This document shows positions 4,607 through 20,923 of a DNA stretch of 64,000 nucleotides, in pieces. This DNA is from an uncultured Chthoniobacter sp. (GTDB taxonomy: Bacteria; Verrucomicrobiota; Verrucomicrobiia; Chthoniobacterales; JACTMZ01), in contig CAZSUJ010000004.1 in assembly GCA_964609925.1 (NCBI GenBank), forward strand, positions 9,534-73,533, written 5' to 3'. The notes beneath the pieces are model-generated. The model did no database searches, was not told the origin of the DNA, and worked only from the letters and a program-made list of their open reading frames with translations. Numbering within the stretch: the stretch's first letter is position 1; each line of letters opens with the position of its first letter. The position numbers were made by a program, and so were the translations under genes.

Positions 4607-6727
4607 ATGAAACGAACCACGAGACTGCCAGCCGGCGATGTCATTCTTTACGGGGCGGACTACAACCCGGACCAATGGCAGGGGCAGGAGCATGTGCTGC
4701 TCGACGACATCGCGCTCATGAAGAAGGCCCGGGTCACGTCGGCGTCGATCGGAATCTTCTCGTGGACAGCCCTCGAGCCGGAGCCCGGCGTGTTCACTTT
4801 CGATTGGCTCGACGCCACGATGGACCGTTTCGCCGAGGCCGGGTTGAAGGTCTTCCTCGCCACGCCGAGCGGAAGCAAGCCGATGTGGCTTTCGGAAAGC
4901 CACCCGGAGGTGAGGCGCGTTGACGTGCAAGGCCGGAGGGAGCCCTCGGGCGGACGGCACAACCATTGTCCCACTTCGCCGGCTTACCGGGAGGCTGTGC
5001 ACCGGATCAACAGCGAGCTCGCGCTGCGCTACGGAAGGCACCCGGTGCTTGCATTGTGGCACGTCGGAAACGAGCTCAACGGCGATTGCCACTGCGACCT
5101 CTGCCGCGCCGCGTTCCAAGGCTGGCTGCGGCAGCGCCACGGAAGCTTGGACAACCTCAATCGCGCATGGTGGACATCGTTCTGGAACCAGACCTACAAC
5201 GACTGGTCTCAGATCCCCACTTTCAACAAGAGCATCGACGGCTTGGCGGTGGACTGGATGCGCTTCGTCAACGACCAGCACTGCTCGTTCCTGGAAAACG
5301 AGATGGCCCCGTTGAGGGAGTTCGCCCCGTCCATTCCGTGCACCACGAACTTCATGGGCACGCACCCGACCACGAATTACTGGCAGTGGGCAAAGACCGT
5401 GGACTGCGTTTCCAACGACCACTATCCCCTGCCCGACGATCGCGAGGACTGCTGGCGGCGGTCGCTGGGAGCCGACTTCATCCACAGCCTCATGCGCGGC
5501 ATGGCGCACGGCGATCCATGGATCTTGATGGAGTGCTCCCCCAGCTCCGTCAACTGGGGCAAAGTCAACAAACTCAAGCGTCCCGGCGTGCACATGCAGG
5601 AAGTCCTGCAGGCCGTGGCCAACGGCGCGGATGTCGTCCACTACTTCCAGTGGCGGAAAGGACGCGGGGGCCACGAGAAATTCCACGGGGCGGTGGTTGA
5701 CCACGAGGGCAGCTCACGCACACGAGTCTTCAAGGAATGCACCGAGGTCGGAAAGACGCTTGAGATGCTCGCACCGGTGGTCGGAATCCGATCCGACCGC
5801 GCTCCGGTGGCCATGATCTACGATTGGGAAAGCCGCTGGGCGCTGGCTGCGTCCGCAGGCCCCAAGTCCGAGGCGTGGGGCGACCTCTACACGCGCACCT
5901 GCAGCGAGCATTTCCGCGCACTCCGGCTGGCCGGGATCGAAGTCGATCTGGTTCCGGTCGATGCCGATCTCTCGGGCTACCGCACCGTCATCACCCCGTC
6001 GCTCTACTTGCTCGAGCAGCAGACAGCTCGGAAGCTGACAAACTTTGTCGAGATGGGGGGCGCGTGGATCGCGACCTACTTGACCGGCTACGTGGACGAA
6101 CACAACCGCTGCTGGTGCGGCGGATTCCCGGGCCCGAATCTGCGCGAAGTGTTTGGCCTCTGGAACGAGGAGGTCGATTACCTTTTCGACGATGAGACCG
6201 TCAGGATCCTCGGCCGCATCGCCGGCTTGGGACCGGACATGAAGGCCAAGGATGTGGTCGAGCACCTGCACGCCGAGGGCGCGACGACCATGGCGTCGGT
6301 CGATTCGGATTTCTACGCAGGCGCACCTGCGGTCCTGCGCAACAAGTGGAAAGAGGGTTCGGCCTACTACGTCGGAACCCGCCTCGACGAGGAGAGCCTC
6401 ACCGCATTCTACCGCGTGGTGGCTGCCGAACTCGGCCTGCCGCGCACGGAACTTCCGCGCGGCATCGTCCGCAAAGCGCGTCTCGGATCAGCCGGGCCGG
6501 TGGACTTTCTCTTCAACTACACCAAGGCAGGCGTCGAGATCGACCTTGGCGACGAGACGTTCATGCAGGTTTCCGACGGGCGACAAGTCACCGGAAGGAC
6601 GACCCTTCAGGCGTATGAAACCCTCCTCCGAGGCGTGACCCCGCCCCGTCGGCAGGGCACCGCCGCGACTCGAAAACATCCCCTCCATCATGAACACCCA
6701 ACACCCCCGCTCCCCACTCCAGGCTAA
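4607..6727 (+). CDS. GH42 beta-galactosidase, cytoplasmic
   Basis: The ATG at 4607 gives MKRTTRLPAGDVILYGADYNPDQWQ. Also WHVGNELNG, the Cys cluster CHCDLCRAAF (GH42 Zn site) and a trimerisation-type C-terminal half. No signal peptide. The 5' part of ORF 4139..6727 is discarded. Confidence 0.85.
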   Translation: MKRTTRLPAGDVILYGADYNPDQWQGQEHVLLDDIALMKKARVTSASIGIFSWTALEPEPGVFTFDWLDATMDRFAEAGLKVFLATPSGSKPMWLSESHPEVRRVDVQGRREPSGGRHNHCPTSPAYREAVHRINSELALRYGRHPVLALWHVGNELNGDCHCDLCRAAFQGWLRQRHGSLDNLNRAWWTSFWNQTYNDWSQIPTFNKSIDGLAVDWMRFVNDQHCSFLENEMAPLREFAPSIPCTTNFMGTHPTTNYWQWAKTVDCVSNDHYPLPDDREDCWRRSLGADFIHSLMRGMAHGDPWILMECSPSSVNWGKVNKLKRPGVHMQEVLQAVANGADVVHYFQWRKGRGGHEKFHGAVVDHEGSSRTRVFKECTEVGKTLEMLAPVVGIRSDRAPVAMIYDWESRWALAASAGPKSEAWGDLYTRTCSEHFRALRLAGIEVDLVPVDADLSGYRTVITPSLYLLEQQTARKLTNFVEMGGAWIATYLTGYVDEHNRCWCGGFPGPNLREVFGLWNEEVDYLFDDETVRILGRIAGLGPDMKAKDVVEHLHAEGATTMASVDSDFYAGAPAVLRNKWKEGSAYYVGTRLDEESLTAFYRVVAAELGLPRTELPRGIVRKARLGSAGPVDFLFNYTKAGVEIDLGDETFMQVSDGRQVTGRTTLQAYETLLRGVTPPRRQGTAATRKHPLHHEHPTPPLPTPG

Positions 6728-7433
6728 GACAGGGGCATTCACCCTCGTCGAGATCCTGGTCGTCGTCGCAATCATCGGTGTCCTCGCTGCGTTGGCCTTC
6801 CCCGTGCTGCAACGCGTCCGAGGCAAGGCCGGCGAAACGAAGTCCGTCGCGGCCATGAAGTCGGTGCTGACTGCCAACTCGCTCTACTCGGCCGACAACT
6901 TCGGGCAGATTCTCACCCTGAAGTATGCTGGGGACCCTTCGCTAGCTGGAGGCGGGTGGGTCGGAGGGGCATATTGGGGACGCTTGCAGCCGTATCTCTT
7001 CGGGACACCGAGAATCTCCAATCAAACCCAGCTTCAAGCAAAGATCCTCAGTGAGCTGAGGAACCTTTTCGGCGGGGATCCCAAGACCATGAGCGGGACC
7101 GCGTTCGAAGGGCCGAAGATTTACCATGACACGTCCGCCCTCCCTGTGCCGTTTGCCTTCAACAAGTATCTGAACAAGTGGAATGGCTGGGTGACTCAGT
7201 TGCAAATAACCAAGCCCGCGTCCACCATTTATGCCACCTATGGCTTCGCCATGTTTGATGAGGCGGACGCCGCCGCTTACCGGGAATTGCCCAAGAACGG
7301 TGACAGGCCAGAGAATAACATTTTCTATCTCCCACCAAACAGGACCCTCGCTGGCTTCCTGGACGGGAGGGTGGAGATTCTGACCGCTCCCATCCCGGAA
7401 GAGATGGTCAAATTCGAAGGTGCCAGCCTGTGA
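6690..7433 (+). CDS. Prepilin-type N-terminal cleavage/methylation domain protein (PVC pseudopilin-like)
   Basis: MNTQHPRSPLQAKTGAFTLVEILVVVAIIGVLAALAFP is the class-III signal / N-methylation helix. The C-terminal ...LAGFLDGRVEIL resembles a degenerate H-X9-DG motif. The gene starts 38 nt inside the 3' end of the GH42 gene. Confidence 0.75.
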   Translation: MNTQHPRSPLQAKTGAFTLVEILVVVAIIGVLAALAFPVLQRVRGKAGETKSVAAMKSVLTANSLYSADNFGQILTLKYAGDPSLAGGGWVGGAYWGRLQPYLFGTPRISNQTQLQAKILSELRNLFGGDPKTMSGTAFEGPKIYHDTSALPVPFAFNKYLNKWNGWVTQLQITKPASTIYATYGFAMFDEADAAAYRELPKNGDRPENNIFYLPPNRTLAGFLDGRVEILTAPIPEEMVKFEGASL

Positions 7434-7552
7434 CAAGGCACCTCCCGAGTGTCATTGAACGAGGGGTCTATTCCTGAGGTCCAATCTTCTGGCATCTTCT
7501 TGGCGGTAAGTTGCCTCCCCCCATGCCGGCCCCTCCCGATACCACCCGACGC

Positions 7553-10500
7553 ATGACCGCCCGAGTCTGCTCCCGCACGTTGGCGGCCGTCTTGGCCTCC
7601 GCCGCCTTGGTGCCGGTTGTAATGGCCCAGCGGGTCAACGTGGCGAAATACCAGACCGTCACGGCCAGTTCGACGAGTTCGACTTATCGTCCCGATTTCG
7701 CGGTGGACGGCATCGCGGGCAACTTCCACTCGTTCCGCAGCTCCGGCGCGTTCTGGCTTGAGGTCTCCTACCCCGCTCCGATCGCGATCGCCAGCGCACA
7801 CGTCTATCTCGGACTCCTCGAGGGCAGCACCACGCAGGTCCTCTCGAACTTCCGCTTCCAGTATCACGACGGCGCCGGTTGGCTGGACATTCCCGGTTCA
7901 GTCGTGACAGGCAACACACTCGCCGAACGCTCGGTCATCTTCTCCCAAGCCGTCACCGCGACCCGTTTCCGGCTGCTCAGCAACGACGCCTCGGGATCAC
8001 GCACCGTCCGGGAGCTCGCTTTCTTCCCGCCCAATATCGTCGGCAACGTCGAGCAGGGCCAGCCACTCGGCACCGACGTCAACCTTAACCTGGCCTACAA
8101 ACGCCCCGCCACGGCCTCGTCCCATCAAATCGTCAACACCAATGGCGCGGGCTACCCGAAGAATGCATTCGACGGCTACATCGACAACCGTTCGCGCTGG
8201 CTGATCCAGCCGACGAACATCAGTGGCACGAATGTTTATCTCAGCGGAGAATTTCTCGAGGTGGATCTCCTCGCCACCAACTTGATCGGCTCGGCCCATG
8301 TTTACTCGGGAATCATGAGCACCAACCGCACAAGCAGCTCCCCCATCCCGGATTTCGAGCTGCAGTATCTGAGCGGGACCAACTGGCTTGTCATTCCCGG
8401 CACCAGCGTCGCCGGCAACACCAACCCCAGTTTGGTGGTCCCGTTTGCGACCAACGTGGCGACCAGCCGCGTCCGCCTCGTCACCACCAGCGCCACCCCG
8501 GCGCGGCTGCAGGAACTCCTTCTCTTCCCTCCGCGCACGGGCGGATACCCGGTCGGTCAGGAGGTCATCAATGCCGCCCCTTCGACCAACACCTGGGAGC
8601 GTCTCTCGGACTCCTTCTACCGCGTCCGCAATGCCGGCCCGGATCTCCGGATCGGGCTCGTCAGCGGGGCCGTGGTGAACGTTCCGGCGGACGCCAACAA
8701 CCCGCAGCGCACGGAATGGCAATTGCTGCTGAACTACCGCGACGGCACCTACCGCGTGCGGAACGCCGAGTCCGGCTTGTGCCTTGCCCTCGCCCGCGAC
8801 CTCAACGGTCAGATCAGCACCTCGAACAACACCCCGGTCGTCGCGGAGCAATACACCGGCCTCCCGCACCAGGACTGGCGCATGCTCTACGCCAACGCCA
8901 CCAACTTCAGCCTGGCCAACGCCTACTCGGGTTTGGTCATCCAACCCTCCGGAAGCAGTTGGAGTTCAGGGACCCCTCTCGTCGTCAGCACCGTCAACAC
9001 GAGCAACGTGACGCAGCTTTGGAACACCAGCTTCCGCCGCCACTATCCCAAGAAGGGTATCGCTGGAACGCTCAACCCGAATCCGTTCAACACCAACATC
9101 ACTTACCATCGGGACTTTTTCGACCGCTTGGGGGGCGGCAGCTGGAGTTACGTGTGGGGGAGGCCGTTCAACAGCAACTTCCCCTACCTCGATCACAACC
9201 ACGTCTACAACCCGATGCAGTGGGGGAACTTCAGTTGGACCCATGGATCCGCTCAAGGTCCGATGGAAAACCTCCATCGCGAACTGCAGTCAAACCCCAA
9301 GCCTGTTTACTTCATGGGCTTCAACGAGCCGGACAAGACGGAGCAAGGCTTCATCACGGTGGAAGAGGCCGTCATGCGCTGGCCGCGTTTCGAGGCGCGT
9401 GATGTCCCGCTTGTTTCGCCAGTGCCTGCCGACACTTTCAGCGAGTGGAGCACCAACTTCTTCAGCCAAGCCGAGGACAACGGCTACCGCGTCGACCACA
9501 CTGCCGTCCATTGGTATGCTGCGCCGAGCGCCTCCTCGTTGATCACCAACGTCCTTTGGAAGGCCTACACGAACTACGGCAACCGCCCGATCTGGCTGAC
9601 CGAGTTTTCCGTCGTTCCGTGGGGAGTGACAAACACCAACACTGCTTGGACGGAGAAGGACAATTTCGACTTCCTCGCCGAGTTCATGTGGCGCGCGGAG
9701 GGCATATCCTGGATCAAGCGCTATTCCCTCTTCTGTTTCACCACCGGCGGCTCCACCAACAATCCGAACTACACCTACGCCCCGCGCAGCGACACGTTCA
9801 ACGCCGACGGCAGCCTCACTCCGTTCGGCCAACTCTACGCCGGCTGGGACGGTGTCACGAACGTGGTCACGAACCGCGCCTACCACCTGCATGCATTCGG
9901 GAGCTACCAACGCGGACGCAACCCGGGTGGCACCTCCGCCCCCACCGCCGTCTCACCCTCGAACAACATCGCCGGAACCCAGTGGACGCTGTTTCCAGCC
10001 ACCACCACGACCAATACGAATACGTTCCGCATCATCTCCACACTCGACGGCCGTCCGTTGCGGACGACAAACGGAACGAACGTCAGCCTCGGCACCAACG
10101 GCGAGACCGGCGCCGCCGTGGAGTGGCGTCTCGCAGCCGACCAAAACGGGCTCCAGTTCATCCAGCATCCGGCCTCGGGCAACCGGCGGCTCCACCTCGC
10201 CAGCAACAGCAGCACGCTCACGATGGTCGCCTCAAACAACACGACCGACTTCTCGGAATGGCGCTTCGTCCGGCCGGCCGTTTCCGAGACGGCCGCGCCG
10301 CCGACTTCGCCGACCGGCGTCACCGCCAACGGAGGCGTCGCGTCTGTCGTCGTTTCATGGGCACCCGTGGACGCTGCGGACAGCTATGCCATCGAACGCC
10401 TCGATCCAGTCCAGCTGACTTGGTCGAACGTGGTGACCGGATTGACCCAGACGGCTTGGACCAACAACGCACTGCCCGGCAACACCACCAATTCCTACCG

Positions 10501-10966
10501 TGTCACGGCCGCAAACATCCTCGGCACCTCGCCGGCGTCCGCGGTTGTCGTGGCGACCACGATGCATCCGATGTCCTCGCTTGCAGCGTGGAACTCCGAG
10601 TATCTCGCCAGCCTGCCGCCGCAGGATCAGGCCAACACGGCGGACCCGGACCGTGACCGGATCCTGAACATTCTCGAATACGCCCACGCCAGCAGCCCGA
10701 CCCAGCCCGGCGCGAACCCCTTCCAGATCGGACCGCCGGTCGCGCAGAGCGTGACCATCCAGTTCCCTTGGAACTGGCGGGCAACGGACATCACCTGGCG
10801 CGTGCGCGGCGGGACCAATCTGGCCAGCATGTCGGCCTGGTCGGTTGTCACTCCCACGAGCGTGCAAACCAACCGCAGCGGGGATGTGGATGTCATCCGC
10901 ATGACGTTCCCGTGCGGCGTCATCCCGTGCCGGTTCTTCGTGCTCGAGGTTTTGCCTGCGCCCTGA
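7553..10966 (+). CDS. Secreted multidomain glycoside hydrolase: 2x F5/8-type-C (CBM32-like), ricin-B, GH128-like (Glyco_hydro_cc) catalytic core, ricin-B, Fn3, C-terminal TSP3-like module
   Basis: The ATG at 7553 gives the signal MTARVCSRTLAAVLASAALVPVVMA. Two discoidin-like domains (...VDGIAGNFHSFRS..., ...AFDGYIDNRSRWL...). Ricin-like QxW repeats (EWQLL, QDWRML, TQLWNT). Clan GH-A core motifs YNPMQWG, FMGFNEPD, DHTAVHWY, PIWLTEFS. Fn3 with SWAPVDAADSYAIER. The tail is ...DPDRDRILNILEYA...CRFFVLEVLPAP. Confidence 0.75.
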   Translation: MTARVCSRTLAAVLASAALVPVVMAQRVNVAKYQTVTASSTSSTYRPDFAVDGIAGNFHSFRSSGAFWLEVSYPAPIAIASAHVYLGLLEGSTTQVLSNFRFQYHDGAGWLDIPGSVVTGNTLAERSVIFSQAVTATRFRLLSNDASGSRTVRELAFFPPNIVGNVEQGQPLGTDVNLNLAYKRPATASSHQIVNTNGAGYPKNAFDGYIDNRSRWLIQPTNISGTNVYLSGEFLEVDLLATNLIGSAHVYSGIMSTNRTSSSPIPDFELQYLSGTNWLVIPGTSVAGNTNPSLVVPFATNVATSRVRLVTTSATPARLQELLLFPPRTGGYPVGQEVINAAPSTNTWERLSDSFYRVRNAGPDLRIGLVSGAVVNVPADANNPQRTEWQLLLNYRDGTYRVRNAESGLCLALARDLNGQISTSNNTPVVAEQYTGLPHQDWRMLYANATNFSLANAYSGLVIQPSGSSWSSGTPLVVSTVNTSNVTQLWNTSFRRHYPKKGIAGTLNPNPFNTNITYHRDFFDRLGGGSWSYVWGRPFNSNFPYLDHNHVYNPMQWGNFSWTHGSAQGPMENLHRELQSNPKPVYFMGFNEPDKTEQGFITVEEAVMRWPRFEARDVPLVSPVPADTFSEWSTNFFSQAEDNGYRVDHTAVHWYAAPSASSLITNVLWKAYTNYGNRPIWLTEFSVVPWGVTNTNTAWTEKDNFDFLAEFMWRAEGISWIKRYSLFCFTTGGSTNNPNYTYAPRSDTFNADGSLTPFGQLYAGWDGVTNVVTNRAYHLHAFGSYQRGRNPGGTSAPTAVSPSNNIAGTQWTLFPATTTTNTNTFRIISTLDGRPLRTTNGTNVSLGTNGETGAAVEWRLAADQNGLQFIQHPASGNRRLHLASNSSTLTMVASNNTTDFSEWRFVRPAVSETAAPPTSPTGVTANGGVASVVVSWAPVDAADSYAIERLDPVQLTWSNVVTGLTQTAWTNNALPGNTTNSYRVTAANILGTSPASAVVVATTMHPMSSLAAWNSEYLASLPPQDQANTADPDRDRILNILEYAHASSPTQPGANPFQIGPPVAQSVTIQFPWNWRATDITWRVRGGTNLASMSAWSVVTPTSVQTNRSGDVDVIRMTFPCGVIPCRFFVLEVLPAP
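10571..10963 (+). other. Copy A of the recurrent TSP3-like + beta-rich module (C-terminal)
   Basis: SSLAAWNSEY...ADPDRDRILNILEYAHASSP...MSAWSVV...CRFFVLEVLPAP-stop. Confidence 0.6.
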
Positions 10967-10996
10967 GGCGGAAGCGCTATCGACCGCGCAAGGCGC

Positions 10997-12280
10997 TCAG
11001 AAATTCACGCCGGTGAAGAATCCCGCGATGAAGCCGTCACTCACCTCCGGTCCGCCCGCGGGCTGGATGATGCATTGGACGAAGGGCTGCAGGAATGCCC
11101 AGCCATTGATCTGCACTCGGTAGCCTCCCTCGACCACCATCGTCCCCGTGCGATTGGAACTCCGGCTGTCGCGGCCACCGGCGACAGCCACCTGCGCGAA
11201 GTCGGCGCTCCGCCCAGGCGCAGGGCCTTGGTAAACCAGCCCGCCCTGAGCGTAGAGCGGCCACCGGTTGTTGTAGGGTGGCGCGAAGCTGACCATGCTG
11301 AAGAGACGCAAGCCTTCCTCAGCCGAGCCGGGTTCTCGGAAGAGCATCTGGTCGGCTTGCCAGTAGAACCCGTAGCGGCTCCCGCCGTCATCGTTGCCCT
11401 GCCCGTAGAAATAGCCGCCGAAGGCGTATTTCCCCGGTAGCTTCCCCTCGCCCACCAAGGGCGTGAAGCCGGTCTCGCCCATGAAGAACTCCCCGTTGTT
11501 CGCGGGATCGTGAGCGTCGCCTTGCATCATCAGCCCGTGGTTTTCCGCGAGCGTCCCCTCGGGATAGCTCATGAACAAGCCGACCTTCGTGTATTGCCAG
11601 TCGAGCGGCTTGACCTCCACCGTGCCGCCCCAAGTTGAAAAACCCGACGAGAACGGGATGTTCCCACCGAGGCCTTTCGCGCTCTGGATGGCGGCGTTGA
11701 GGAAGTTGAGGGAGAGCGGTTGGTTCAGAAACTCGCGCACCGGACGCAGCCAGCCTCCCGACAACGCGAGCAAGCCCTTGCGTCCGCCGAGCCCCGACGT
11801 GCTATAGCGCAGTCCGCAGGCTGCGAGACGCCAATCCACGCCGGTCTCGTAAGGTGAAGGGTTGAACATCCCAGCGGCCCGCACGGCCTCGTTGGGATTG
11901 TCCGCAGACGCGGGATCACGCCAGCGGCCCTCGATGAAGCCGTCCAACCCGTCGAGGAGCCGGGTGCCCAGAACTTCGTCGAAATCCACCACCGCTCCGA
12001 AGGCGAGCTCTTGGTCGAAGAAACCGGCCGCTCCCTCCTCGCTCGCGACAACTCCATAGAATCCCCCGCGCCAGCGCCCCTCGAACTCGATCCCGCCACT
12101 CGACAAAGCTTCGCGCGCGCCGAACCAGTCCCCTGTCATCTGCCGCCCGTTCCACCACCGGGGAAGCGCCGCGGGAGCCGCCGGGCTCCCGGCCCGGCTC
12201 GCGCTTGCGCACACGATCCAGACGATCAAGACCGCCGCCCGCCGCCAGATGTCCGTTCGATACCTCGACTTTGTGCCCAT
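10997..12280 (-). CDS. OprB-family carbohydrate-selective porin
   Basis: The ATG at 12280 gives MGTKSRYRTDIWRRAAVLIVWIVCASA. The OprB-type N-terminus is MTGDWFGAREALSSGGIEFEG. The sequence has an alternating beta-strand character and ends in FFTGVNF (C-terminal Phe of an outer-membrane barrel). Confidence 0.75.
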   Translation of the reverse strand: MGTKSRYRTDIWRRAAVLIVWIVCASASRAGSPAAPAALPRWWNGRQMTGDWFGAREALSSGGIEFEGRWRGGFYGVVASEEGAAGFFDQELAFGAVVDFDEVLGTRLLDGLDGFIEGRWRDPASADNPNEAVRAAGMFNPSPYETGVDWRLAACGLRYSTSGLGGRKGLLALSGGWLRPVREFLNQPLSLNFLNAAIQSAKGLGGNIPFSSGFSTWGGTVEVKPLDWQYTKVGLFMSYPEGTLAENHGLMMQGDAHDPANNGEFFMGETGFTPLVGEGKLPGKYAFGGYFYGQGNDDGGSRYGFYWQADQMLFREPGSAEEGLRLFSMVSFAPPYNNRWPLYAQGGLVYQGPAPGRSADFAQVAVAGGRDSRSSNRTGTMVVEGGYRVQINGWAFLQPFVQCIIQPAGGPEVSDGFIAGFFTGVNF

Positions 12281-12418
12281 CAATACCGCCCCGGGGGGAG
12301 CAGCGCTGGCCTCCCGTGCGAAGAACGTCACTGGAGCGTGCCAACGGGGCGCAATCTATTAGCTCACCTAATACATGGCAAGCGCAAGAATCCCCGGCAG
12401 GACGAAGTCCAGGGCTTA

Positions 12419-15400
12419 TCAGGGCACGTTGAAGACGACCTTGTGCGTCAGCATCCGCTTCGGCGCGATGGCGAGCGGGGTCGGCCCGGTCACGGGCGAA
12501 GCACCGCGGCTGCCGTCGGGATTCAGCCGATAGAAGGAAGTGTAGCGCGTTTCCCAACCGGGATTGAAGGCCACGAACGTCGTCTCGACGCTCGTCGGGC
12601 TGAGCCGTTTGGTGAACGTGGCGGTGAGGACGATGGACGAGTTCGCATCGGCGCCGCCGGCGTCCTTGGCCCGCGCAACGTAGGTCCAGTCGAGGTCGCC
12701 GTAGTCTTTGAAGCTCGAAAGAAACGTCAGCACGCTCGTCGAAAGGATGGAAGGATTGCGCGCCGCGAACTCACCGGGGGCGGCAGTCGTGGTTACCCAA
12801 CTCGACCACAGGCGATCGATGTAGGGCTGGACGGCGGGCGTGTTCGGCGTGGTCCCGGTCATGGGGAATGGCTGGTCACCGGGGTTGTAAGGCACGCCGG
12901 CCATGGCCGCGGTCATGCTCATGGAGAGCCATTCGGCAGGCTGGAAAAGCGCGGAATTCCGGGCGTCCGTCCACTCCTGCCGCATGGTCGTTCCGGCCCA
13001 GCGGCGCATGTAGGTCGTATCACGGGCCATACCGAGGGTCCACGCGGTGGGCGGGTAGGCTTGGATGAAGCGGGAACCGGTCGGGAAGGCATAGAAGAAG
13101 TTGTTCAGCGTGACTTCGGCCTTCTTCGTCAGTGACTGCCCCGCGCTGGCCTTTCCGCCGAAAGCCTCGGGCGACTCGTAGAACGCCAGCGGACTGGCCT
13201 CGACGTAGCCCGTGTTGACCGGCCATCCGGCGTTGTTGCCGTTGTTGATCACCTGACCCGAGTCGATCGTCGTGACCGGGACCCACGAGTGCAGGTTGAG
13301 CGGCGAGTTCGCCAAGTTGTAGTTCTTGTCGAGGAAGTAGGCCTCCCCAGCCGCGAGGTTCGAGGTGAACAGGTAGATACCGAGGTCGAGCACGGCTTTG
13401 CGGTCGGTGGCCGCGCCCCAAAGGATGGCCGCGGACCACGCTTGGATTCCCTCGAACACGGAATTCTCGTTCTCGCCATTGTATTTGTCGCTCAGGGTGC
13501 CGTAAGCGCCCCAGTAGCCGAGCGGATTGGTCGTGTCCAAAACCGCCGTGGTGCTCCCCGGCATCGCCCCGCTGGCCCACGGGTGTCCGGTGAACTGGTC
13601 GAAGAACGCGAACTTCTGGTAGCTCATCCGCGCGTCCTTGTAGAGGCTGGCATCCAACGCGGCGTTGTCGGGATCGTAAGCCAGCGTCATGAGCAACTGG
13701 TCAATCGCCGTGCCCATCTGGCTTTGGGAAACCCAGAGGTCAGCCGGTTTGGTGTTGATGTTGGGCTCCCACGCGCGGTCGAAGATGCCGGCGAGGGCGG
13801 CCGAGCTGAGGTAATAGCCGTAGAAGTAGTGCTGGTCGTTCCACTGGTCGGACACGCCGAAGCCGCTCCACAGCATGCCCTTTTCCCACTTCGAAAGGCC
13901 GGTCTTTGTCGCGTTCTGCACGGGCGAGACCGTAGCCGGGTTTTGCACCGAGCTGACGACACCCCAAGCGGGCTGCGTGGCCGTCGGGTTGATCACGATG
14001 CGGCCGGTGCCCTCGTCGTATTGCGAGTAGTAGGCCATGTTCCACAGATTGGCCAAGGACTGCGGCGAGGGATTGTTCTCGGAGGGCGGGTCCAAGAAGA
14101 GGAGGCTGATGGCGCGCTGCATGCCCTGCACGGAACTCTTGAGCGCGTCGTTCATCCCGCCGAAGGGATTGTTCTGGGCGAAAACCGGGAACTCGTAGGA
14201 GTTGGCCGGGGTCTTGGCCGCGTTCAAGGCGTAGGAAGTGATGTCGACATTCGGGTAATTCGCGGCGTTGGTCGCGACTGACTGCTGGAGGTTGAAGACA
14301 TCGCCGAGGAAGTTGGCGGCGGCCCCGAACTGGTTGCCCAAACCGTAGCCGTCCGGCGCGGAAGAACCGAGGAACGCGCCGTTGAAAGGCGCGAGGCCCT
14401 GACTGGTGAGCTTCGTATATTGGGCGATGATCGAATTATAGACGACCTCATCCACACCGGTGGTCTGGGGTGCGACCTGGCCACGGTAGAAGAAGGCCGG
14501 CTGGACAATGCGGGGGAAAGGCGTAAGCGTAACGCACCAAGTCAAGGCGGGCGGACTGTCCTTTGTGGCCACGCCCTCGGTCCCGGGGATGTATCTGGCT
14601 GGCGCCGCACCCGAGGGAGGCGGATTCTTGTTGAAGCTGGCAACCGAGCCGTTGGACAGGACGGCAACGAATCTCGCGGGGAATCCTTTCGGGTTGTGCA
14701 CGGAGACGGGGTCGGGATTGCCCGAGCCCGACCAGTTGGTGGCCACCGGCACCACGCTGAGGCTCGAGTTGTAGCCGCTGCCGGGTGCGGTGACGTTGAT
14801 CGCCGTGATTCGTCCGTCCGTCACCACGACATCAGCTTGGGCGGGCGATGTGGGAAGAGGGTCTCCTTGGTTGAACCACAACTTCAAGCTGGGCAGGTAG
14901 TTGCTCCCAGAGCGCAGGATGCGCACCGCCTTGACCCCGCCGTTGGTATCGAGCACGGGCTGCAAGGCGGCGTCGAAGCCGAGGCCGCCGAAGATCGCGT
15001 ATTCCAAGGGATCGTAGGTCAGGCCCGCACCCGCATTCGAGATGATCAGGTTGGTCGCCTCGATGATACCATTGGTCGGGATGGTGAAACCAATGACGGG
15101 AGCGACCACGTTCGTGACCGCGGGATCTGAAGGGTCCTTGGCCAGAAAGCTGACCTGCGTCTCGGAATCGTAACCCGGGACCAGCGGCGAGGTAATGTCG
15201 GCCCCATTGACGGAATAGGTGGCGTAAACCCGCGCCACGGCGTTGGTGGTCGGGGAACCGCCGACGAAGACGACATCCTTCGGTGAGTTGATGATGAAAT
15301 CCGAAGGAACACCGTCGCCCAGAACCACATTGGCGACCCTGCTGCCATTGAAGAACGTCTTCAGGCCCACCGTCTTGGGCGGCACCGAGTCGTCCGTGAA

Positions 15401-18400
15401 GGAGGCGGTGAGCGTGTTGGTGGCAGCATAGTTGCCTTGGTTGATGATCGCCGCCTGGAAGGTGCCCGGAATCTTCGTCATCCTCGCGGTGGCCGTCTGG
15501 GCGTTCGTGCTGTTTGTCCCCGGTGGGATGGACACGGTCACAACCGGCGGGTTGCCATCCACCGAAGGGTAGGAGCCCGCGCTGCCGGTTCCGCCGTAGG
15601 GCGGGTCGATCTGGAAGATGTTGCCGGGCTTCACGACTTCGAACTGGGCGCCTGTGCCGGTGCCGAAGAGGCTCACGTTGATGCTGTTGGTGTTCGTGGG
15701 GGAGAAATCGAAGCCCGCCCCGCCCTCAACCACGTTGACCAGACCCGGCAGCATCGCGCCGGTGTTTCCGTCAAAATTCGGCACGATGATCGGAGGATCG
15801 ATGTTTTGGCCGCCCTGGGTGGCCGTCATGACCGACGAATAGCCACTCCCCTTGTCGAGCATGAAGATCGCGAGCACCTTGCCGCCGCCGACCTGCGCGT
15901 AGGCCTTGGCCTGCCGGCCGCCGGCCGCGGTCGGAGGATCGATGGTGACGCTGACGGTCGCCGGGGGAATGCCGTCGGGATAAGACTGACCCTTGCTGAC
16001 CACATCGACCTGCTGGACCTCCCCCCGGTAGGCATCGACGAGAGCGACGGCGGTGGCGCCGTTGCCCTTGTTCGAACTATCCACGATGGCGACCTGCGGC
16101 GCCGCCGTGATCTTGGTGTAGTTGGTGCCGACATCGGTGATGATGATGCCCGGGATGCCGGTCTGGGTAACACGGCGGGAGTAGTCCGGAGGGGGAAGGC
16201 TCGGGAGGAAATTCTGGAACGGATAGGCCACGGTGAAGGAGTCCGTGATGACGGGCTTGAGGTTCCCGCGCAGGCTCCAGTAGTTCCAACGCGAGGCGGT
16301 GGTTGGCGTGGTGCGATTGGCGTTGGGGGGTGCGCTTGCGGGGATGGGGAAATCGCGACCGTAGGAACGCAGCGGGCTCCACACGACCTCGGGGCGCGCG
16401 GCCTTGGTCAAATCGGGGCCGAGCGTGATCGGTTGGTATTGATGCGGGTTGAGAGCGATCACGGTCTGCCGTGAATCCGCGGTCATGCCGGCTGCCGCCG
16501 GACGCCCGGCCGCAGCGTAAGGATTGCGCACATCGACACGGAAAGTCGTCTGAGACTCGGTCATGTTGTCCACCGTGTAGTCGATGCTCGTCGACGTGGG
16601 GAAATTGAAGGCGTATTGGCCGAGCGACGACGCCCAGTCGCGCGCCGCCTGGTCCATGATGCGGCGGCTGTCGGCGGGGACGCCAGTGTGGTAGTAGCGC
16701 ATTGGCGGGACGTTCGCGACGACGAACCAGTTCTTCGCGCGCGGTTGGACGAACTCGAGGAAGAAGAAGGGGTTGCCCTGTGCGTCGGTGCCGTTGTTGA
16801 AGCCCGGGGCGTTGGCGGGCGGCCCGAGTTTGACCGGACGAACGGTGTCCGTGCGGTAGAAGACGGCGGTGTAGGTGTGATTGTTCTGCCCGGGCGCGTT
16901 GATCGTGTTGCCGGCCTTGTTTTTGTAGGGTCCGGGCGGGGGATTGAAGCCGCCGGGCTGCTTCGACGGGGTGTCGAAATACCATGGCGGAACCTCCTGA
17001 TACCATTGGTTGGGATTCACGTGGTTGCCGTAGAGCAGCACGAACTGCACGCCGCTGACCCCGGGAACACTCCACGGTCCGCCGGCCACCATGCCCGCGC
17101 CGGTGCCGGTATTATTGCTGATCGCGCCGTTCGTGTTGGCGCGGATGAGATTGTAGAAGGTCGTGTAGCGGGCGTTGTTGACCTCGCACCACGCGTAGGG
17201 CAGCCCCTGCCCCACCGTCATCTTGAGGTAGTTCCCCTTGCCCGGCTGGTTGAAGGGCGTGCGCTGGTAGCGGTTGGCCGCGTAGTAGTTCGTGGCCCGC
17301 AGGCTCGCCGCCTCATAGATTATGTCCGCATCGAAATCCCCGACGCGATCGACCTTTAGCGAGAAGGGAGTCTGGTCCTCGGCTGAAGCGCCACGATCCC
17401 ACACCGGGTAAGGAAACGGATCATTCGTCCCGCCGGGCCGCAGGTTCCATGCGCCGGGTTGCAGGACTTCGTCCGGACGCAGATTGCCCGGCACCACCAC
17501 CGTGGTCTCCAGGGGTCGCATGGCGAGGTAAAGCCACGCCTGATGCCACGAGACCGGCACGCTGGAGGCAGTCAGCTTGTCACCGTATTGGTAGAAGAAG
17601 GGGTTGACGGAGGAGAGGTTGACCCCGCGCACGATGGTCTTGTCCTGCCAATAGTCGGTGTTGAGCGGAAAATTCTTCATCGGCTTCGATTGGTAGCCGA
17701 AGGGACCCGGAGCCCAGTTGTAATTGACGATGAAGGGATTCAGGAAAAGCGGCTGCTGGTCCACGCGAACAGGGTTCCATGTGCCGGCGGAGCGGCCGCC
17801 GTCGGGGGCGTTGGTATTCTGCGGCCACTGGTAATTGAAATAATCCCAATCCGAGCCGGTGTAGTTGCCGTAGTCGCCCGGCGCGTGGATACCGGGCTTG
17901 ATGCCGGGCGGCGGCGTGCCATCCGCCCAGAGGAACCAGCCGAGCCAGGAACGCAGCGGCGGACGCACGCCATTGGTCGAGTAGTCCTGCAGGAGATCGG
18001 CGGTGAAGCTGCCGCGGGCGGCACCAACGGCACTCGGATACTTCGATGTGTCGGGGGTCGGATCAGTGGAACTGACGGGTGCCGCTTCCGTGCGCACGCT
18101 GACATTGGGCAACGGCGGCAAGCCAGCCCAAGCGCTGCCGACGTTCGTGCCGATATGGAACACGGTGTCCCCCGGTCCGCCGGCGGAGGAAAACCGCGGC
18201 AGCGCCCCGGCCGATGCGTCCGCCGGGAGGCGCACCTCGAGGGTGAAGAAGCGCATCGGGTTGAGGTCCACAGGATGGCCGTAAACGGTGTAGCCATCAC
18301 CTTCCTCGAGAACAACGGGCGTGCCATTGGCCGGTTCCCACTGGCCCAGAACAGCCGAACTCATCACGCGCACCTGCGCGCTGCCGACACTCTGGTCGCT

Positions 18401-20923
18401 CTGCCGGTAAACGAAGTAGGCCTGGCCCGGGGAGCGCGTCTCATCCAGAGCCGGTGCCAATGCGACAGGCGGATCGGCCTCCAACGGGCTGGTGCCGAGG
18501 ACGTATTCTAGGGCATTGGCAAAACCGTCTGCGTCGGGGTCATCGGTCGGCTGCTGCCGGTCCGACGGCACTCCTTTGGCGGCGAGCCAATCGGCAAAGG
18601 TCACGGGCCCGGAAGCACCGGCAACCCCGACCATCCAGCAGGTGCCGACAGCCGCAAGCAGGAGTGTTTTGACGGCTCCGGACTGGGCCCGGCGGCGGCG
18701 GCGAACAACGAAATAGACCGCGGCTGCTCCCATCAAGAGGAGCGCTGCAGTGCTTGGCTCGGGGACGGCCGTGGCGCCGAACACCGCCTGACCGAGATTG
18801 CCCAAGGGCACGCCCGTGCCGGCGATGTAGTTCGTGATGTTGGCCGCCGACACGCTCGAAAGCAGGCTGAACTGGGCTGGCCCGATGTAGGCTCCCAAGT
18901 CGAATCCACCCACCTCCGGCAGCCACACGAAAGCGCGCGAGCCCATGTCCGTGTTGCCGCTGTAGAGCGTGTAGAAGCCGGCCGCGAGACCGGTTTCGGT
19001 CATGAGTTGGATCTGGGTGAAAGCCTGCCCGGAGAGCGCAGTGGAGAAGACGAGTTCGTGCGTTTGGTCGAGGATCGGCTGGTAGATCCACCCGGACACG
19101 CCGAGTTGCAGCGCCCCACCGTTGTAACGCTCGGCCGATCCGGCCACGTAACCGCTTTCCGTCACCTGCAAGATGGTTGACTGCGCGTATCCGTCGTTGC
19201 GGGTGTAGGTCGGGCCGGTGAGGCCGATCTCCGCGGTCACGCCATTGGTCTTGGTCAGCCACGTCGCGTTGCCGAGAAGCACGTTCCCGCCATTGTAGCG
19301 CTCCGAGTATCCGAGGACCAAACCGGCGCCGGTCACGTAATCGGCCGAGCTGTATTGGAAGCCCGTCGCACTGGTGAAGTTCGTGCCGGTCAGCCCGACG
19401 CGGGTGGTCGCTCCAGCTGGCGTGGCGACCCAAGCAGACTGCCCTGCAGGCGAGCCGCCGGTGTAGCGCAGCGAGTAGCCGATGGCGCGTCCCGATGCAT
19501 TCATCCGATCCGCGACGCTTTGCTGGTAGCCGCTCGAAGAAGTGTGCTCCGCGTCGGTCAGGCCGATCCGGGCGCTGGAGTAAGTGCCGCCAGGGGCCTG
19601 CGCGATCCAAGCTGCATTGCCTTGGTCGGTCTCTCCGGTGAAGCGCTGGGAACCTCCGATGGCGACTCCCGACTCCGCCAGGGCGCGCACGAAGCTAAAC
19701 TCGCGACCGGATGCCGATTGAAACTCGCCGCCTGTCAGACCGACCCGCACGGTCGAGGCATTACTGATCGTCGCCACCCAGGCCGCTTGGCCCGGAGCCA
19801 CGCCGACGTAACGCTCCGAGTGCCCGGCGACCAGACCGGAGTCGGTGATCGCAACCACATCGCTCACCCGCGCACCGTTCGTCGCGGTGTAGTCCGCGCC
19901 GATGAACCCGACCCGCTGCGTCGTGGCGCCCCCCGGCGAGGCAACCCACGCCGACTTTCCTGTCGCCGCTCCGGCATTGAACCGCTCGGAGTAGCCGGCG
20001 GACTGTCCTGCGAAGTTGATGAATTGCGCCTCGCTTGCCTGATAGCCATTCGTGCCGGTGTGCTCGGCATCGTAGAATCCCACGGCGACCGTCGCGCCCG
20101 GGTTGGTGCTCCATCGCGAAACCCACGCATGCTGGCCGAGAAAATCCCCGGTTCCGGCGGCGTATCTCCAAGAAAAGCCCGCGACCTCACCCGACTCGGC
20201 GGTCTGGCCGATCGAACTGAACTGGTATCCATTGGTCCCAGTGAACCCGGCGTTGGTGAACCCGACCCGCTGGGTCACCGGCACGCCGGCCACCGGCTTC
20301 GCCACCCACGCGCTCTGGCCGAGGTCATTCGACGCTGTCGCTCCGTAACGCCGCGAGAAGCCGACGCTCACCCCGTCGGACGTGATGGATGTCGCCTCGG
20401 AAAACTGGAAGGTGCCGCCTGTGTGTTCAGTGTCGAAAAGCCCGACGCGCGTCGTGACGGCGTTGGAGGCGTTCGCCACCCAAGCCGCGCTGCCGAAATT
20501 CGTCGCAGTCCCGAGAAACCGCGCGGCACTCCCGCGAAGCCAGCCACCTTCGGTCAGTTCAACCGCGACGTTGGCTTGGGTGCCGTCGTTGCGCGTGTAG
20601 TCCGTTCCGGAAAGGCCGATCTGTCGCGTCCCGTCGCCCGACGCAAAAATCCAAGGAACCGTCCCGAGCGAGTTGGATCCCTGGAAGCGCTCGGAGGCCC
20701 CGAACACCTGCCCCGCCTCGTTCATTCCGCCCAAGATGCTGTTCTGGAAGGTGTCGCTGCGCGTGTAATTGCTGTCGAAAAAACCCAACCGCTGAAGGTT
20801 CGTCAGCCCCTGCCCTTGCGCCTGCCCGAGCATGAGAAGCGACAGAGACACGAAAGTTGCGGAACGAAAGAGAACGGTCAGGGAAACCGTCGACGTGATG
20901 GTGGAGAGCCGGCAGCAAGTCAC
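12419..20923 (-). CDS. Giant (2,834 codons) surface protein: signal + 11 HAF-like repeats + internal PEP-CTERM + second hydrophobic segment + TSP3-like module + GH81-like endo-beta-1,3-glucanase split by an inserted repeat array
   Basis: Uninterrupted minus-strand frame. GH81-type C-domain motifs are WNDQHYFYGYY (13811-13843), FDQFTGHPWASG (13568-13588 for GHPWASG) and ENENSVFEGIQAWSAAILWG (from 13474 downwards). The GH81 N-domain-like part is TVGQGLPYAWCEV (~17181-17220). The PEP-CTERM is VPEPSTAALLLMGAAAVYFVVRRRRR at 18689-18766. Confidence 0.7.
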   Translation of the reverse strand: MTCCRLSTITSTVSLTVLFRSATFVSLSLLMLGQAQGQGLTNLQRLGFFDSNYTRSDTFQNSILGGMNEAGQVFGASERFQGSNSLGTVPWIFASGDGTRQIGLSGTDYTRNDGTQANVAVELTEGGWLRGSAARFLGTATNFGSAAWVANASNAVTTRVGLFDTEHTGGTFQFSEATSITSDGVSVGFSRRYGATASNDLGQSAWVAKPVAGVPVTQRVGFTNAGFTGTNGYQFSSIGQTAESGEVAGFSWRYAAGTGDFLGQHAWVSRWSTNPGATVAVGFYDAEHTGTNGYQASEAQFINFAGQSAGYSERFNAGAATGKSAWVASPGGATTQRVGFIGADYTATNGARVSDVVAITDSGLVAGHSERYVGVAPGQAAWVATISNASTVRVGLTGGEFQSASGREFSFVRALAESGVAIGGSQRFTGETDQGNAAWIAQAPGGTYSSARIGLTDAEHTSSSGYQQSVADRMNASGRAIGYSLRYTGGSPAGQSAWVATPAGATTRVGLTGTNFTSATGFQYSSADYVTGAGLVLGYSERYNGGNVLLGNATWLTKTNGVTAEIGLTGPTYTRNDGYAQSTILQVTESGYVAGSAERYNGGALQLGVSGWIYQPILDQTHELVFSTALSGQAFTQIQLMTETGLAAGFYTLYSGNTDMGSRAFVWLPEVGGFDLGAYIGPAQFSLLSSVSAANITNYIAGTGVPLGNLGQAVFGATAVPEPSTAALLLMGAAAVYFVVRRRRRAQSGAVKTLLLAAVGTCWMVGVAGASGPVTFADWLAAKGVPSDRQQPTDDPDADGFANALEYVLGTSPLEADPPVALAPALDETRSPGQAYFVYRQSDQSVGSAQVRVMSSAVLGQWEPANGTPVVLEEGDGYTVYGHPVDLNPMRFFTLEVRLPADASAGALPRFSSAGGPGDTVFHIGTNVGSAWAGLPPLPNVSVRTEAAPVSSTDPTPDTSKYPSAVGAARGSFTADLLQDYSTNGVRPPLRSWLGWFLWADGTPPPGIKPGIHAPGDYGNYTGSDWDYFNYQWPQNTNAPDGGRSAGTWNPVRVDQQPLFLNPFIVNYNWAPGPFGYQSKPMKNFPLNTDYWQDKTIVRGVNLSSVNPFFYQYGDKLTASSVPVSWHQAWLYLAMRPLETTVVVPGNLRPDEVLQPGAWNLRPGGTNDPFPYPVWDRGASAEDQTPFSLKVDRVGDFDADIIYEAASLRATNYYAANRYQRTPFNQPGKGNYLKMTVGQGLPYAWCEVNNARYTTFYNLIRANTNGAISNNTGTGAGMVAGGPWSVPGVSGVQFVLLYGNHVNPNQWYQEVPPWYFDTPSKQPGGFNPPPGPYKNKAGNTINAPGQNNHTYTAVFYRTDTVRPVKLGPPANAPGFNNGTDAQGNPFFFLEFVQPRAKNWFVVANVPPMRYYHTGVPADSRRIMDQAARDWASSLGQYAFNFPTSTSIDYTVDNMTESQTTFRVDVRNPYAAAGRPAAAGMTADSRQTVIALNPHQYQPITLGPDLTKAARPEVVWSPLRSYGRDFPIPASAPPNANRTTPTTASRWNYWSLRGNLKPVITDSFTVAYPFQNFLPSLPPPDYSRRVTQTGIPGIIITDVGTNYTKITAAPQVAIVDSSNKGNGATAVALVDAYRGEVQQVDVVSKGQSYPDGIPPATVSVTIDPPTAAGGRQAKAYAQVGGGKVLAIFMLDKGSGYSSVMTATQGGQNIDPPIIVPNFDGNTGAMLPGLVNVVEGGAGFDFSPTNTNSINVSLFGTGTGAQFEVVKPGNIFQIDPPYGGTGSAGSYPSVDGNPPVVTVSIPPGTNSTNAQTATARMTKIPGTFQAAIINQGNYAATNTLTASFTDDSVPPKTVGLKTFFNGSRVANVVLGDGVPSDFIINSPKDVVFVGGSPTTNAVARVYATYSVNGADITSPLVPGYDSETQVSFLAKDPSDPAVTNVVAPVIGFTIPTNGIIEATNLIISNAGAGLTYDPLEYAIFGGLGFDAALQPVLDTNGGVKAVRILRSGSNYLPSLKLWFNQGDPLPTSPAQADVVVTDGRITAINVTAPGSGYNSSLSVVPVATNWSGSGNPDPVSVHNPKGFPARFVAVLSNGSVASFNKNPPPSGAAPARYIPGTEGVATKDSPPALTWCVTLTPFPRIVQPAFFYRGQVAPQTTGVDEVVYNSIIAQYTKLTSQGLAPFNGAFLGSSAPDGYGLGNQFGAAANFLGDVFNLQQSVATNAANYPNVDITSYALNAAKTPANSYEFPVFAQNNPFGGMNDALKSSVQGMQRAISLLFLDPPSENNPSPQSLANLWNMAYYSQYDEGTGRIVINPTATQPAWGVVSSVQNPATVSPVQNATKTGLSKWEKGMLWSGFGVSDQWNDQHYFYGYYLSSAALAGIFDRAWEPNINTKPADLWVSQSQMGTAIDQLLMTLAYDPDNAALDASLYKDARMSYQKFAFFDQFTGHPWASGAMPGSTTAVLDTTNPLGYWGAYGTLSDKYNGENENSVFEGIQAWSAAILWGAATDRKAVLDLGIYLFTSNLAAGEAYFLDKNYNLANSPLNLHSWVPVTTIDSGQVINNGNNAGWPVNTGYVEASPLAFYESPEAFGGKASAGQSLTKKAEVTLNNFFYAFPTGSRFIQAYPPTAWTLGMARDTTYMRRWAGTTMRQEWTDARNSALFQPAEWLSMSMTAAMAGVPYNPGDQPFPMTGTTPNTPAVQPYIDRLWSSWVTTTAAPGEFAARNPSILSTSVLTFLSSFKDYGDLDWTYVARAKDAGGADANSSIVLTATFTKRLSPTSVETTFVAFNPGWETRYTSFYRLNPDGSRGASPVTGPTPLAIAPKRMLTHKVVFNVP
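18221..18603 (-). other. Copy B of the recurrent TSP3-like + beta-rich module (internal, N-terminal to the GH81-like part)
   Basis: VTFADWLAAKG...DDPDADGFANALEYVLGTSP...LGQWEPA...MRFFTLEVRLPA. Confidence 0.6.
18689..18766 (-). other. Internal PEP-CTERM-type sorting motif (PEP + TM helix + Arg cluster)
   Basis: VPEPSTAALLLMGAAAVYFVVRRRRR. The PEP codons lie at 18755-18763 and five Arg codons at 18689-18703. No stop codon follows. Confidence 0.75.
18913..20797 (-). repeat. Eleven divergent ~57-aa protein repeats (HAF-like extracellular repeat)
   Basis: Each unit reads approximately (R)VGLTxxxxTxxxGxQxSxxxxxxxSGxVAGxSxRYxGGxxxGQSAWVAxxxGxTT. The last unit carries GSRAFVWLPEVGGFDLG, close to the HAF-repeat signature as I recall it. 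Confidence 0.6.

Follow-up and report, generated by a model that had tools for sequence, protein, structure and literature searches.

The window analyzed here is a stretch of 64,000 nucleotides from an uncultured Chthoniobacter sp. (assembly GCA_964609925.1, contig CAZSUJ010000004.1, positions 9,534 to 73,533), and the subject of the analysis is a very long protein encoded on its minus strand at 12419-20923, the second part of which resembles enzymes of glycoside hydrolase family 81 (GH81). The interpretation that we favor, with moderate confidence, is that this part is an exported enzyme of a divergent GH81 branch, which would hydrolyze beta-1,3-glucan by the inverting mechanism, would carry a large insert as a substrate-directed lobe, and would be made as part of a precursor that also contains a PEP-CTERM protein. 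The branch is set apart by its long, conserved insertion and by the displacement of one catalytic residue; we regard it as an uncommon variant within a known family rather than as a new type of system.

The protein is encoded by a single open reading frame (ORF) of 2834 codons, which contains no internal stop codon over its 8.5 kb and ends with the stop codon at 12419-12421; a database protein identical to it (P0001) is called from M31. An earlier note, made from the sequence alone, had assigned a GH81-like beta-1,3-glucanase to positions 12419-17700. The peptides quoted in it are indeed inside this range, but the gene extends beyond it by about 1070 codons. Every one of these peptides was found in one minus-strand frame where the note had located it, which includes TVGQGLPYAWCEV at residues 1236-1248 (window positions 17180-17218), VIALNPHQYQ at 1488-1497, WNDQHYFYGYY at 2361-2371, FDQFTGHPWASG at 2441-2452, ENSVFEGIQAWSAAILWG at 2486-2503, and all eight Gly-x-Gly-Tyr peptides between residues 1595 and 2054. 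All features of the protein described below lie on the minus strand.

GH81 domains and the shifted glutamate

The C-terminal catalytic domain of GH81 was found at the C-terminus of the protein, where it had been predicted, at residues 2354-2834 (12422-13864). The Pfam model PF17652 matched residues 2355-2454 with a score of 30.8 bits in the whole ORF and 35.9 bits in its C-terminal part, which is above the gathering cut-off of 25.6. The search of the PDB with the single sequence returned the GH81 structure 6FOP with an E value of 1.9e-8, and also B. halodurans BH0236 (5T49), while a profile built from 58 relatives matched 6FOP with an E value of 3.6e-12 in four colinear stretches. When this region was compared by hhalign with a profile of 19 canonical GH81 proteins, the alignment extended over 308 columns from residue 2354 to the C-terminus (99.8%, E 2e-29, 23% identity). 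Because the Pfam, PDB-profile and hhalign matches all point to the same family, the homology of this domain to GH81 can be regarded as firm, and an (alpha/alpha)6 barrel fold would be expected for it. The domain has a ratio of nonsynonymous to synonymous substitution rates (dN/dS) of 0.09-0.14 in comparison with two Chthoniobacterales orthologues, L005 and L006; as dS in these comparisons is near 1, all the dN/dS values given here are rough.

The data also showed that a GH81 N-terminal beta-sandwich with lineage-specific loop expansions is located directly upstream of the inserted array, at residues 1121-1586 (16166-17563), in agreement with the order of domains proposed earlier. The hhalign comparison matched these residues to positions 67-356 of a canonical GH81 protein (98.8%, E 4.5e-17), in which the Pfam N-domain occupies positions 65-334. 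Two stretches of this region, YAFNF…PHQY and YWSLRGNLK…FQNFLP, were matched to 6FOP (219-311) by the profile of the 58 relatives, and they are colinear with the C-domain matches. A model of residues 750-1600 predicted with AlphaFold2 (AF2) had a mean predicted local distance difference test score (pLDDT) of 82.9, and the six best PDB matches of the N-region model in Foldseek were all structures of the R. miehei GH81 enzyme (5xbz, 4k3a, 4k35; E 3e-8 to 5e-7, probability 1.0). The end of the N-domain coincides exactly with the start of the array. Upstream of it, residues 776-1120 (17564-18598) form an N-terminal extension of the enzyme, which was delimited using the AF2 model, invariant columns, and a BLASTP alignment of residues 958-1588 to the relative P0070. 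At 18485-18544 this extension carries the DPDADGFANALEYVLGTSP motif. It also includes a small beta-sandwich, seen in the AF2 model, and a conserved block (RSWLGWFLW...), which is also present in relatives that have no array. On the other side of the array, residues 2157-2353 (13865-14455) precede the recognizable barrel. They are conserved in the family and align to the array-less relative P0073 from its residue 532, and by position they correspond to GH81 domain B and the first barrel helices, although hhalign left them unaligned to canonical GH81.

The comparison with characterized structures (BH0236, 5T49/5V1W; 6FOP; RmLam81A, 4K35/5XBZ) showed the same order of N-terminal sandwich and C-terminal catalytic domain. 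The canonical invariant motifs N-D-x-H, G-Y, F-D-x-x-x-G-H-x-W-A-x-G, L-W-G, and D-L-G-x-Y-L are retained, as is the second catalytic glutamate. The protein differs from these enzymes by the array of about 570 residues, a much expanded N-domain, the N-terminal extension of about 350 residues, and the displaced first glutamate, at an identity of 21-23% over the aligned parts. The histidine-rich motif is also altered, as it reads NDQHYFYGY in place of the canonical NDHHFHYGY.

The most distinctive change in the catalytic domain is found in the motif that carries the two glutamates, which is G-N-N-Q-E-S-S-S-E-A in canonical GH81 and G-E-N-E-N-S-V-F-E-G in this protein. The two sequences aligned without gaps in all three alignment methods, so that E2491 corresponds to the second canonical glutamate and N2487 to the first one, while E2486 is located one residue earlier. 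The E-x4-E spacing of this pair (residues 2486-2491, ENSVFE, 13451-13468), which had been noticed in the earlier note, is an invariant feature of the 58 relatives. Across these sequences, with identities down to 38%, the N-E-N-S-x-x-E-G motif and the aspartate of F-D-Q do not vary, and neither do D2442, the histidine of the G-H motif, E2486, and E2491. D2442 (13598-13600), located within FDQFTGHPWASG, aligns with the invariant aspartate of the canonical F-D-x-x-x-G-H-S-W-A motif. The PDB chains of BH0236 differ at the first glutamate, which is E in 5V1W and 5T49, and Q in 5UPI and related entries; this substitution fits the view that the first canonical glutamate was taken as catalytic by the depositors.

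The [E/D]-N-[S/T]-x-x-E pattern was also found in the array-less relatives, in a Pseudomonadota metagenome-assembled genome (MAG), and in Methanolinea archaea. Because clade members without the array also have this pattern, the E-x4-E spacing appears to be a mark of the whole divergent clade and to be older than the insertion. In the archaeal sequences (P0088 and members of its cluster from Methanolinea/Methanoregulaceae MAGs) the motif with the shifted acidic residue takes the form D-D-N-S-L-G-E; the clade reaches methanogenic archaea. These archaeal members are fused to C-terminal repeats, which are named DUF11/TIGR01451 by some sources.

The module array inserted between the GH81 domains

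When 1.84 billion representative proteins were scanned with a profile of the C-domain, 328 relatives were returned. The 58 full-length sequences used above (P0001 and 57 others) are at least 1850 residues long and 38-100% identical, and all of them have the complete architecture including the array. Among the 328 relatives, one group, P0073, P0069, P0070, P0074, and P0075, consists of proteins of about 1150-1270 residues that have no array. They share the extended N-domain and the N-E-N-S-x-x-E motif with the protein described here, and both halves are matched in BLASTP with E values of 1e-30 to 1e-53. In the alignment to P0073, residues 1099-1582 of the ORF correspond to residues 133-518, and residues 2157-2814 to residues 532-1188, with a similar result for P0070. 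Hence, 14-17 residues are present in the array-less proteins where the ORF has about 575. The flanking sequences, …F-x-N-F-L-P-x-x-P-P-P and V-x-x-x-L-[FY]-x-S-I, are common to both groups. The bounds of the insertion were taken from pairwise BLASTP alignments, as the multiple alignment scattered the domain B residues of the array-less proteins across the array. Since the array-less relatives join the same flanks across such a short segment, the array is a true insertion at the junction of the N- and C-domains, as had been suggested in the earlier note, and these relatives provide the closest proxy for the state before the insertion.

The inserted array occupies about residues 1587-2156 (about 14456-16165), as defined by BLASTP alignments to P0073, P0070, and P0074. 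The modular array described earlier is thus present, but it is about 570 rather than about 540 residues long and contains about 10-11 modules rather than eight. The comparison of its profile with itself using hhalign revealed internal repeats with off-diagonal E values of 7e-9 to 2e-5. Each module has about 45 residues and consists of a hairpin, a Gly-x-Gly-Tyr/Phe turn, and a third strand. The conserved positions of the array are almost all glycines and tyrosines of these turns, with a few prolines and alanines. Eight turns have a conserved tyrosine; in GGAGF its place is taken by a phenylalanine, and the turn NAGAG lacks an aromatic residue. The first turn, VGTNY, is less conserved. The number of about 10-11 modules rests on the conserved turns together with the predicted strands; a hidden Markov model (HMM) built from four modules (106 positions), which were poorly aligned, recovered the eight clearest modules, two of them weakly. 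The AF2 model of residues 1575-2140 was all-beta with 34 strands, and its pLDDT of 94.4 and predicted template modeling score (pTM) of 0.84 predict that the modules are packed rigidly against one another with a set geometry and do not form a chain of loose beads.

The array and canonical two-module segments matched no family in Pfam or NCBIfam, and the search of a large protein database with array segments gave at first no candidates and then one weak match, P0198. When the array model was compared with the PDB using Foldseek, nothing was found below an E value of 0.06, and the top match, to the cyanobacterial RNA polymerase SI3 domain, was rejected as not significant. On the other hand, the array matched phage proteins in PHROGs, which were phrog_701 ('virion structural protein', 3.5e-14), phrog_708 (2.5e-9), phrog_719 (6e-8), and several PHROGs described as 'baseplate wedge subunit'. 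Among the predicted viral structures in BFVD, 21 were matched with E values below 1e-3, nearly all of them from T4-like cyanophages, and a two-module match had a template modeling score (TM) of 0.42 with a root-mean-square deviation of 3.1 Å and 28% identity. The tblastn search identified 12 cyanophage genomes (E 2e-5, 26-34% identity over ~160-190 residues), and one of the matches was in a 7022-residue protein of Synechococcus phage S-MbCM6, annotated as 'gp8 baseplate wedge' and adjoining gp25 and gp6. These data indicate that the array modules are homologous to modules of cyanomyovirus baseplate and virion proteins (PHROGs 701, 708, 719, 438, and 460), with which they match by sequence, in tblastn, and in predicted fold. 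The two contexts differ in that the phage modules form long strings in structural proteins, while here a fixed set of modules with a rigid predicted packing is located inside an enzyme. The module has no Pfam model or solved structure but is abundant in cyanophage baseplate proteins. Any function found for it here would transfer to those proteins of the phages.

The length of the array and the order of its modules are kept in all the full-length relatives, which belong to two phyla. In comparison with the two Chthoniobacterales orthologues, the dN/dS value was 0.21-0.27 for the array and 0.09-0.15 for the catalytic parts, so that the array is under purifying selection, at roughly double the evolutionary rate of the catalytic domains. 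The scan of species-representative genomes gave 24 loci, mostly from Verrucomicrobiota of the orders Chthoniobacterales, Opitutales, Puniceicoccales, Limisphaerales, and Verrucomicrobiales, and a few from Cyanobacteria (Leptolyngbya JSC-1, Elainella, and Snowella). The clade occurs widely in Verrucomicrobiota, and some Cyanobacteria have it too. The closest loci in this set were Chthoniobacterales MAGs with 86% and 79% identity. The family can be described as a giant, putatively secreted enzyme of soil and water Verrucomicrobia. Some of its members are labeled in databases only as 'hypothetical' or 'GH81 C-terminal domain', and no description of the clade, of a domain insertion in GH81, or of the module was found in the literature searched.

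Several members are longer, which are P0049, P0051-P0054, and L022 of Elainella saxicola (open frame 6323-15958), with lengths of 2313-3257 residues and C-terminal extensions of up to about 1300 residues. One of them, L022, was confirmed as cyanobacterial. The PDB matches of the extension of P0053 to dynactin, SMC, and chemoreceptors were discarded as spurious, as they result from long coiled-coil-like stretches. Another relative, P0072, a 1365-residue protein from a Pseudomonadota MAG, is GH81-like and lacks the array, and it contains two to three textbook G-S-G-Y modules (…VVKINITNKGSGYKQPKVTI…ILTPGSGYTSAPQITI…) at residues ~730-830, between its N-domain and its barrel. Because this site differs from that of the array, it suggests that modules of this type could insert independently.

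The most likely arrangement is that the insert makes up a rigid lobe next to the catalytic cleft, where it may provide additional surface for binding or positioning of polymeric or insoluble substrates, by analogy to the carbohydrate-binding modules (CBMs), such as CBM6 and CBM56, that are appended to other bacterial GH81 enzymes (PMC9609564). More generally, the architecture indicates that displacement of a catalytic glutamate and a very large multi-module insertion at the domain junction are both compatible with the GH81 scaffold. In some GH3 beta-glucosidases a PA14 accessory domain is inserted in the catalytic region. That domain is likewise inserted and probably contacts the substrate, but the insert in the present protein is far larger, multi-modular, and of another fold family.

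It is also possible, although we regard it as rather unlikely, that the array has no role in substrate recognition and is a spacer, an oligomerization module, or a cell-envelope attachment module tolerated at a permissive junction. Such an explanation would agree with the limited set of conserved residues, mainly glycine, proline, alanine, and the turn tyrosine, with the faster evolution of the array than of the catalytic domains, and with the modules located elsewhere in P0072, which suggest mobile, context-independent units. It is less easily reconciled with the conservation of length and module order in relatives from two phyla, or with the rigid predicted arrangement and dN/dS values well below 1.

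Fusion to a PEP-CTERM repeat protein

The earlier part of the ORF encodes a different protein, which is fused in frame to the GH81-like enzyme (12419-20923). Residues 1-718 (18770-20923) begin with a signal-like segment, after which a unit of about 57 residues is repeated 11 times in tandem. The repeats, at ~18900-20800 (residues ~45-670), have as their anchor the G-x-x-A-W-V motif, which is each time preceded by S-E-R-Y-x-G; they matched no Pfam or NCBIfam family. They are followed by a PEP-CTERM sorting motif, VPEPSTAALLLMGAAAVYFVVRRRRR, at residues 719-745 (18689-18769), which scored 22.3-26.4 bits with PF07589 (cut-off 20.7) and 23.7 with TIGR02595 (cut-off 16). This motif has the expected elements, VPEP, a hydrophobic helix, and an arginine cluster, and it is internal (719-745 of 2834 residues) rather than C-terminal. 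Immediately after it, residues 746-772 (18608-18688) form a second hydrophobic, signal-peptide-like segment, AVKTLLLAAVGTCWMVGVAGASG, which was recognized from the DNA and from the start point of unfused homologues, whose N-terminal signal peptide it matches. Since the DNA between the motif and this second segment contains neither a stop codon nor a plausible start codon, the repeat protein and the enzyme make up one ORF.

The junction pattern of PEP, helix, arginine cluster, second helix, and A-x-A recurs in P0002 and at two Chthoniobacterales loci, L005 and L006, and the fused-length proteins P0003 (2825 residues) and P0004 (2818 residues) have the same fused open frame. The fusion is therefore kept in five relatives, while all the others are unfused, and no PEP-CTERM gene was found upstream of the unfused relatives that were inspected. 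The dN/dS value of the upstream repeat part against L005 and L006 was 0.16-0.29. Because the in-frame junction is conserved and the upstream part is under purifying selection, the fusion is considered real. A frameshift or an assembly error at this junction was rejected, as both the frame and the hairpin pattern recur in five other sequences and the upstream dN/dS value is below 0.3.

In the source organism and its closest relatives, the enzyme would thus arise from the C-terminal half of a precursor whose N-terminal half ends in a PEP-CTERM anchor. It is plausible that the membrane helix, the arginine cluster, and the second signal-like helix fold into a hairpin, through which both halves could be exported and then cut apart. 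The motif is of the same type as in known PEP-CTERM/exosortase surface proteins, with the difference that here it is internal, with another signal-like helix and an enzyme of 2060 residues behind it. No exosortase gene was found in the 64-kb window. For the biology of protein sorting, the conserved internal fusion is a minor curiosity in its own right.

Proposed function, competing explanations, and gene neighborhood

The proposed mechanism assumes that the enzyme would be exported through its signal-like segment and that it most likely hydrolyzes a beta-1,3-glucan-type polysaccharide by the inverting mechanism of GH81 (PMC8949617). GH81 is a small family, for which endo-beta-1,3-glucanase is the one activity listed in the literature consulted (PMC13526803). 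Catalysis would depend on D2442 and E2491, with E2486 replacing the first canonical glutamate from one residue earlier. If the enzyme is active, it would widen the sequence space available for annotating beta-glucan degraders in soils and waters, and it would offer a case from nature in which the influence of inserted accessory modules on the activity of a cleft enzyme could be tested.

The genes around the enzyme are consistent with a role in polysaccharide use. An OprB-family carbohydrate-selective porin is encoded directly downstream, also on the minus strand (10997-12331; PF04966, E 8e-26). The convergent neighbor on the plus strand (7511-10966) encodes a 1151-residue protein in which a family scan identified a Glyco_hydro_cc catalytic core and ricin-type lectin domains. 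The Glyco_hydro_cc family of Pfam includes the GH128 beta-1,3-glucanases. Both neighbors fit the breakdown and uptake of glycans. The contig of P0002, which is 84% identical, has the same order of the enzyme, OprB, Glyco_hydro_cc, an N-methyl protein, GH42, and a GntR regulator; this order is not kept at the P0006 or Puniceicoccus loci, and more distant relatives have unrelated neighbors. Elsewhere in the window there are further genes for polysaccharide use, which are six to seven sulfatases, GH42, and GH116-like, raffinose-synthase-like, and acetyl-xylan-esterase-like genes, as well as a sugar ABC transporter. The window also contains two GntR/periplasmic-binding regulators and four large PATR-repeat proteins.

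Several observations weigh against the proposed function. With regard to the domain assignment, the two Pfam models named in the earlier note gave a divided result, as PF17652 was above its gathering score, but the N-domain model PF03639 had no match on the ORF or its parts; the PF17652 match itself spans profile positions 104-177 only (74/349). With regard to catalysis, the position of the first canonical glutamate, which is the residue mutated to glutamine by the depositors of 5UPI, is occupied by asparagine, and the shift of the glutamate by one residue may alter chemistry or specificity. The carbohydrate binding by the array is putative, and its conserved glycine, proline, alanine, and tyrosine residues could be purely structural. 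Finally, the gene neighborhood is conserved in close relatives only and therefore says little about the substrate, and the sulfatase-rich window hints at other substrates.

One alternative explanation is that the protein is an active enzyme with specificity or chemistry unlike that of canonical GH81, acting, as a result of its remodeled catalytic and histidine-rich motifs, on another beta-glycan or on a decorated or sulfated glucan, or by transglycosylation. We consider this unlikely. In its favor, the differences in the motifs are invariant across the clade, the identity of the aligned C-domain is only 23%, and genes for sulfatases, an acetyl esterase, GH42, and GH116 are present in the window. 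Against it, most other canonical GH81 invariants are retained, and the syntenic genes encode a sugar porin and a Glyco_hydro_cc enzyme.

A more elaborate version of the proposed function would treat the array as a polysaccharide-recognition platform of cyanophage-type modules next to the GH81 cleft, holding or unwinding long or triple-helical glucan and so altering the range of substrates open to the enzyme, and the hairpin precursor of Chthoniobacterales as a substrate cut by exosortase and signal peptidase into two surface proteins of fixed stoichiometry. We regard this combination as improbable.

Also improbable is a non-catalytic glycan-binding or surface protein built on the GH81 scaffold, in which the array would be an adhesin-like extension. 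GH81 does include a glucan-binding protein, GmGbp of soybean, and the asparagine at the first canonical glutamate position, the occurrence of the array modules in phage structures that contact the host, and the fusion to a cell-surface PEP-CTERM protein would all be in line with it. The strict invariance of N-E-N-S-x-x-E-G, F-D-Q, and G-H-x-W-A over the 58 sequences, together with the low dN/dS of the C-domain (0.09-0.14), is what an active site under constraint would show, but a binding site could be conserved in the same way.

An artefactual architecture, in which mis-assembly or a frameshift has joined separate genes or the array is a gene of its own between GH81 fragments, has practically negligible probability, since nothing favors it except that the protein is unusually long and has a PEP-CTERM motif in its interior, while the same continuous ORF in dozens of independent assemblies, which already refuted the array as an artefact, is accompanied by purifying selection on every segment and 8.5 kb free of stop codons.

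One further motif is shared by the enzyme and its neighbor. The sequence D-P-D-x-D-x-x-x-N-x-L-E-Y occurs twice in the window, at 18485-18544 (DDPDADGFANALEYVLGTSP), near the N-terminus of the mature enzyme, and at 10643-10699 (DPDRDRILNILEYAHASSP), near the C-terminus of the Glyco_hydro_cc protein. It is also kept at the N-terminus of most relatives.

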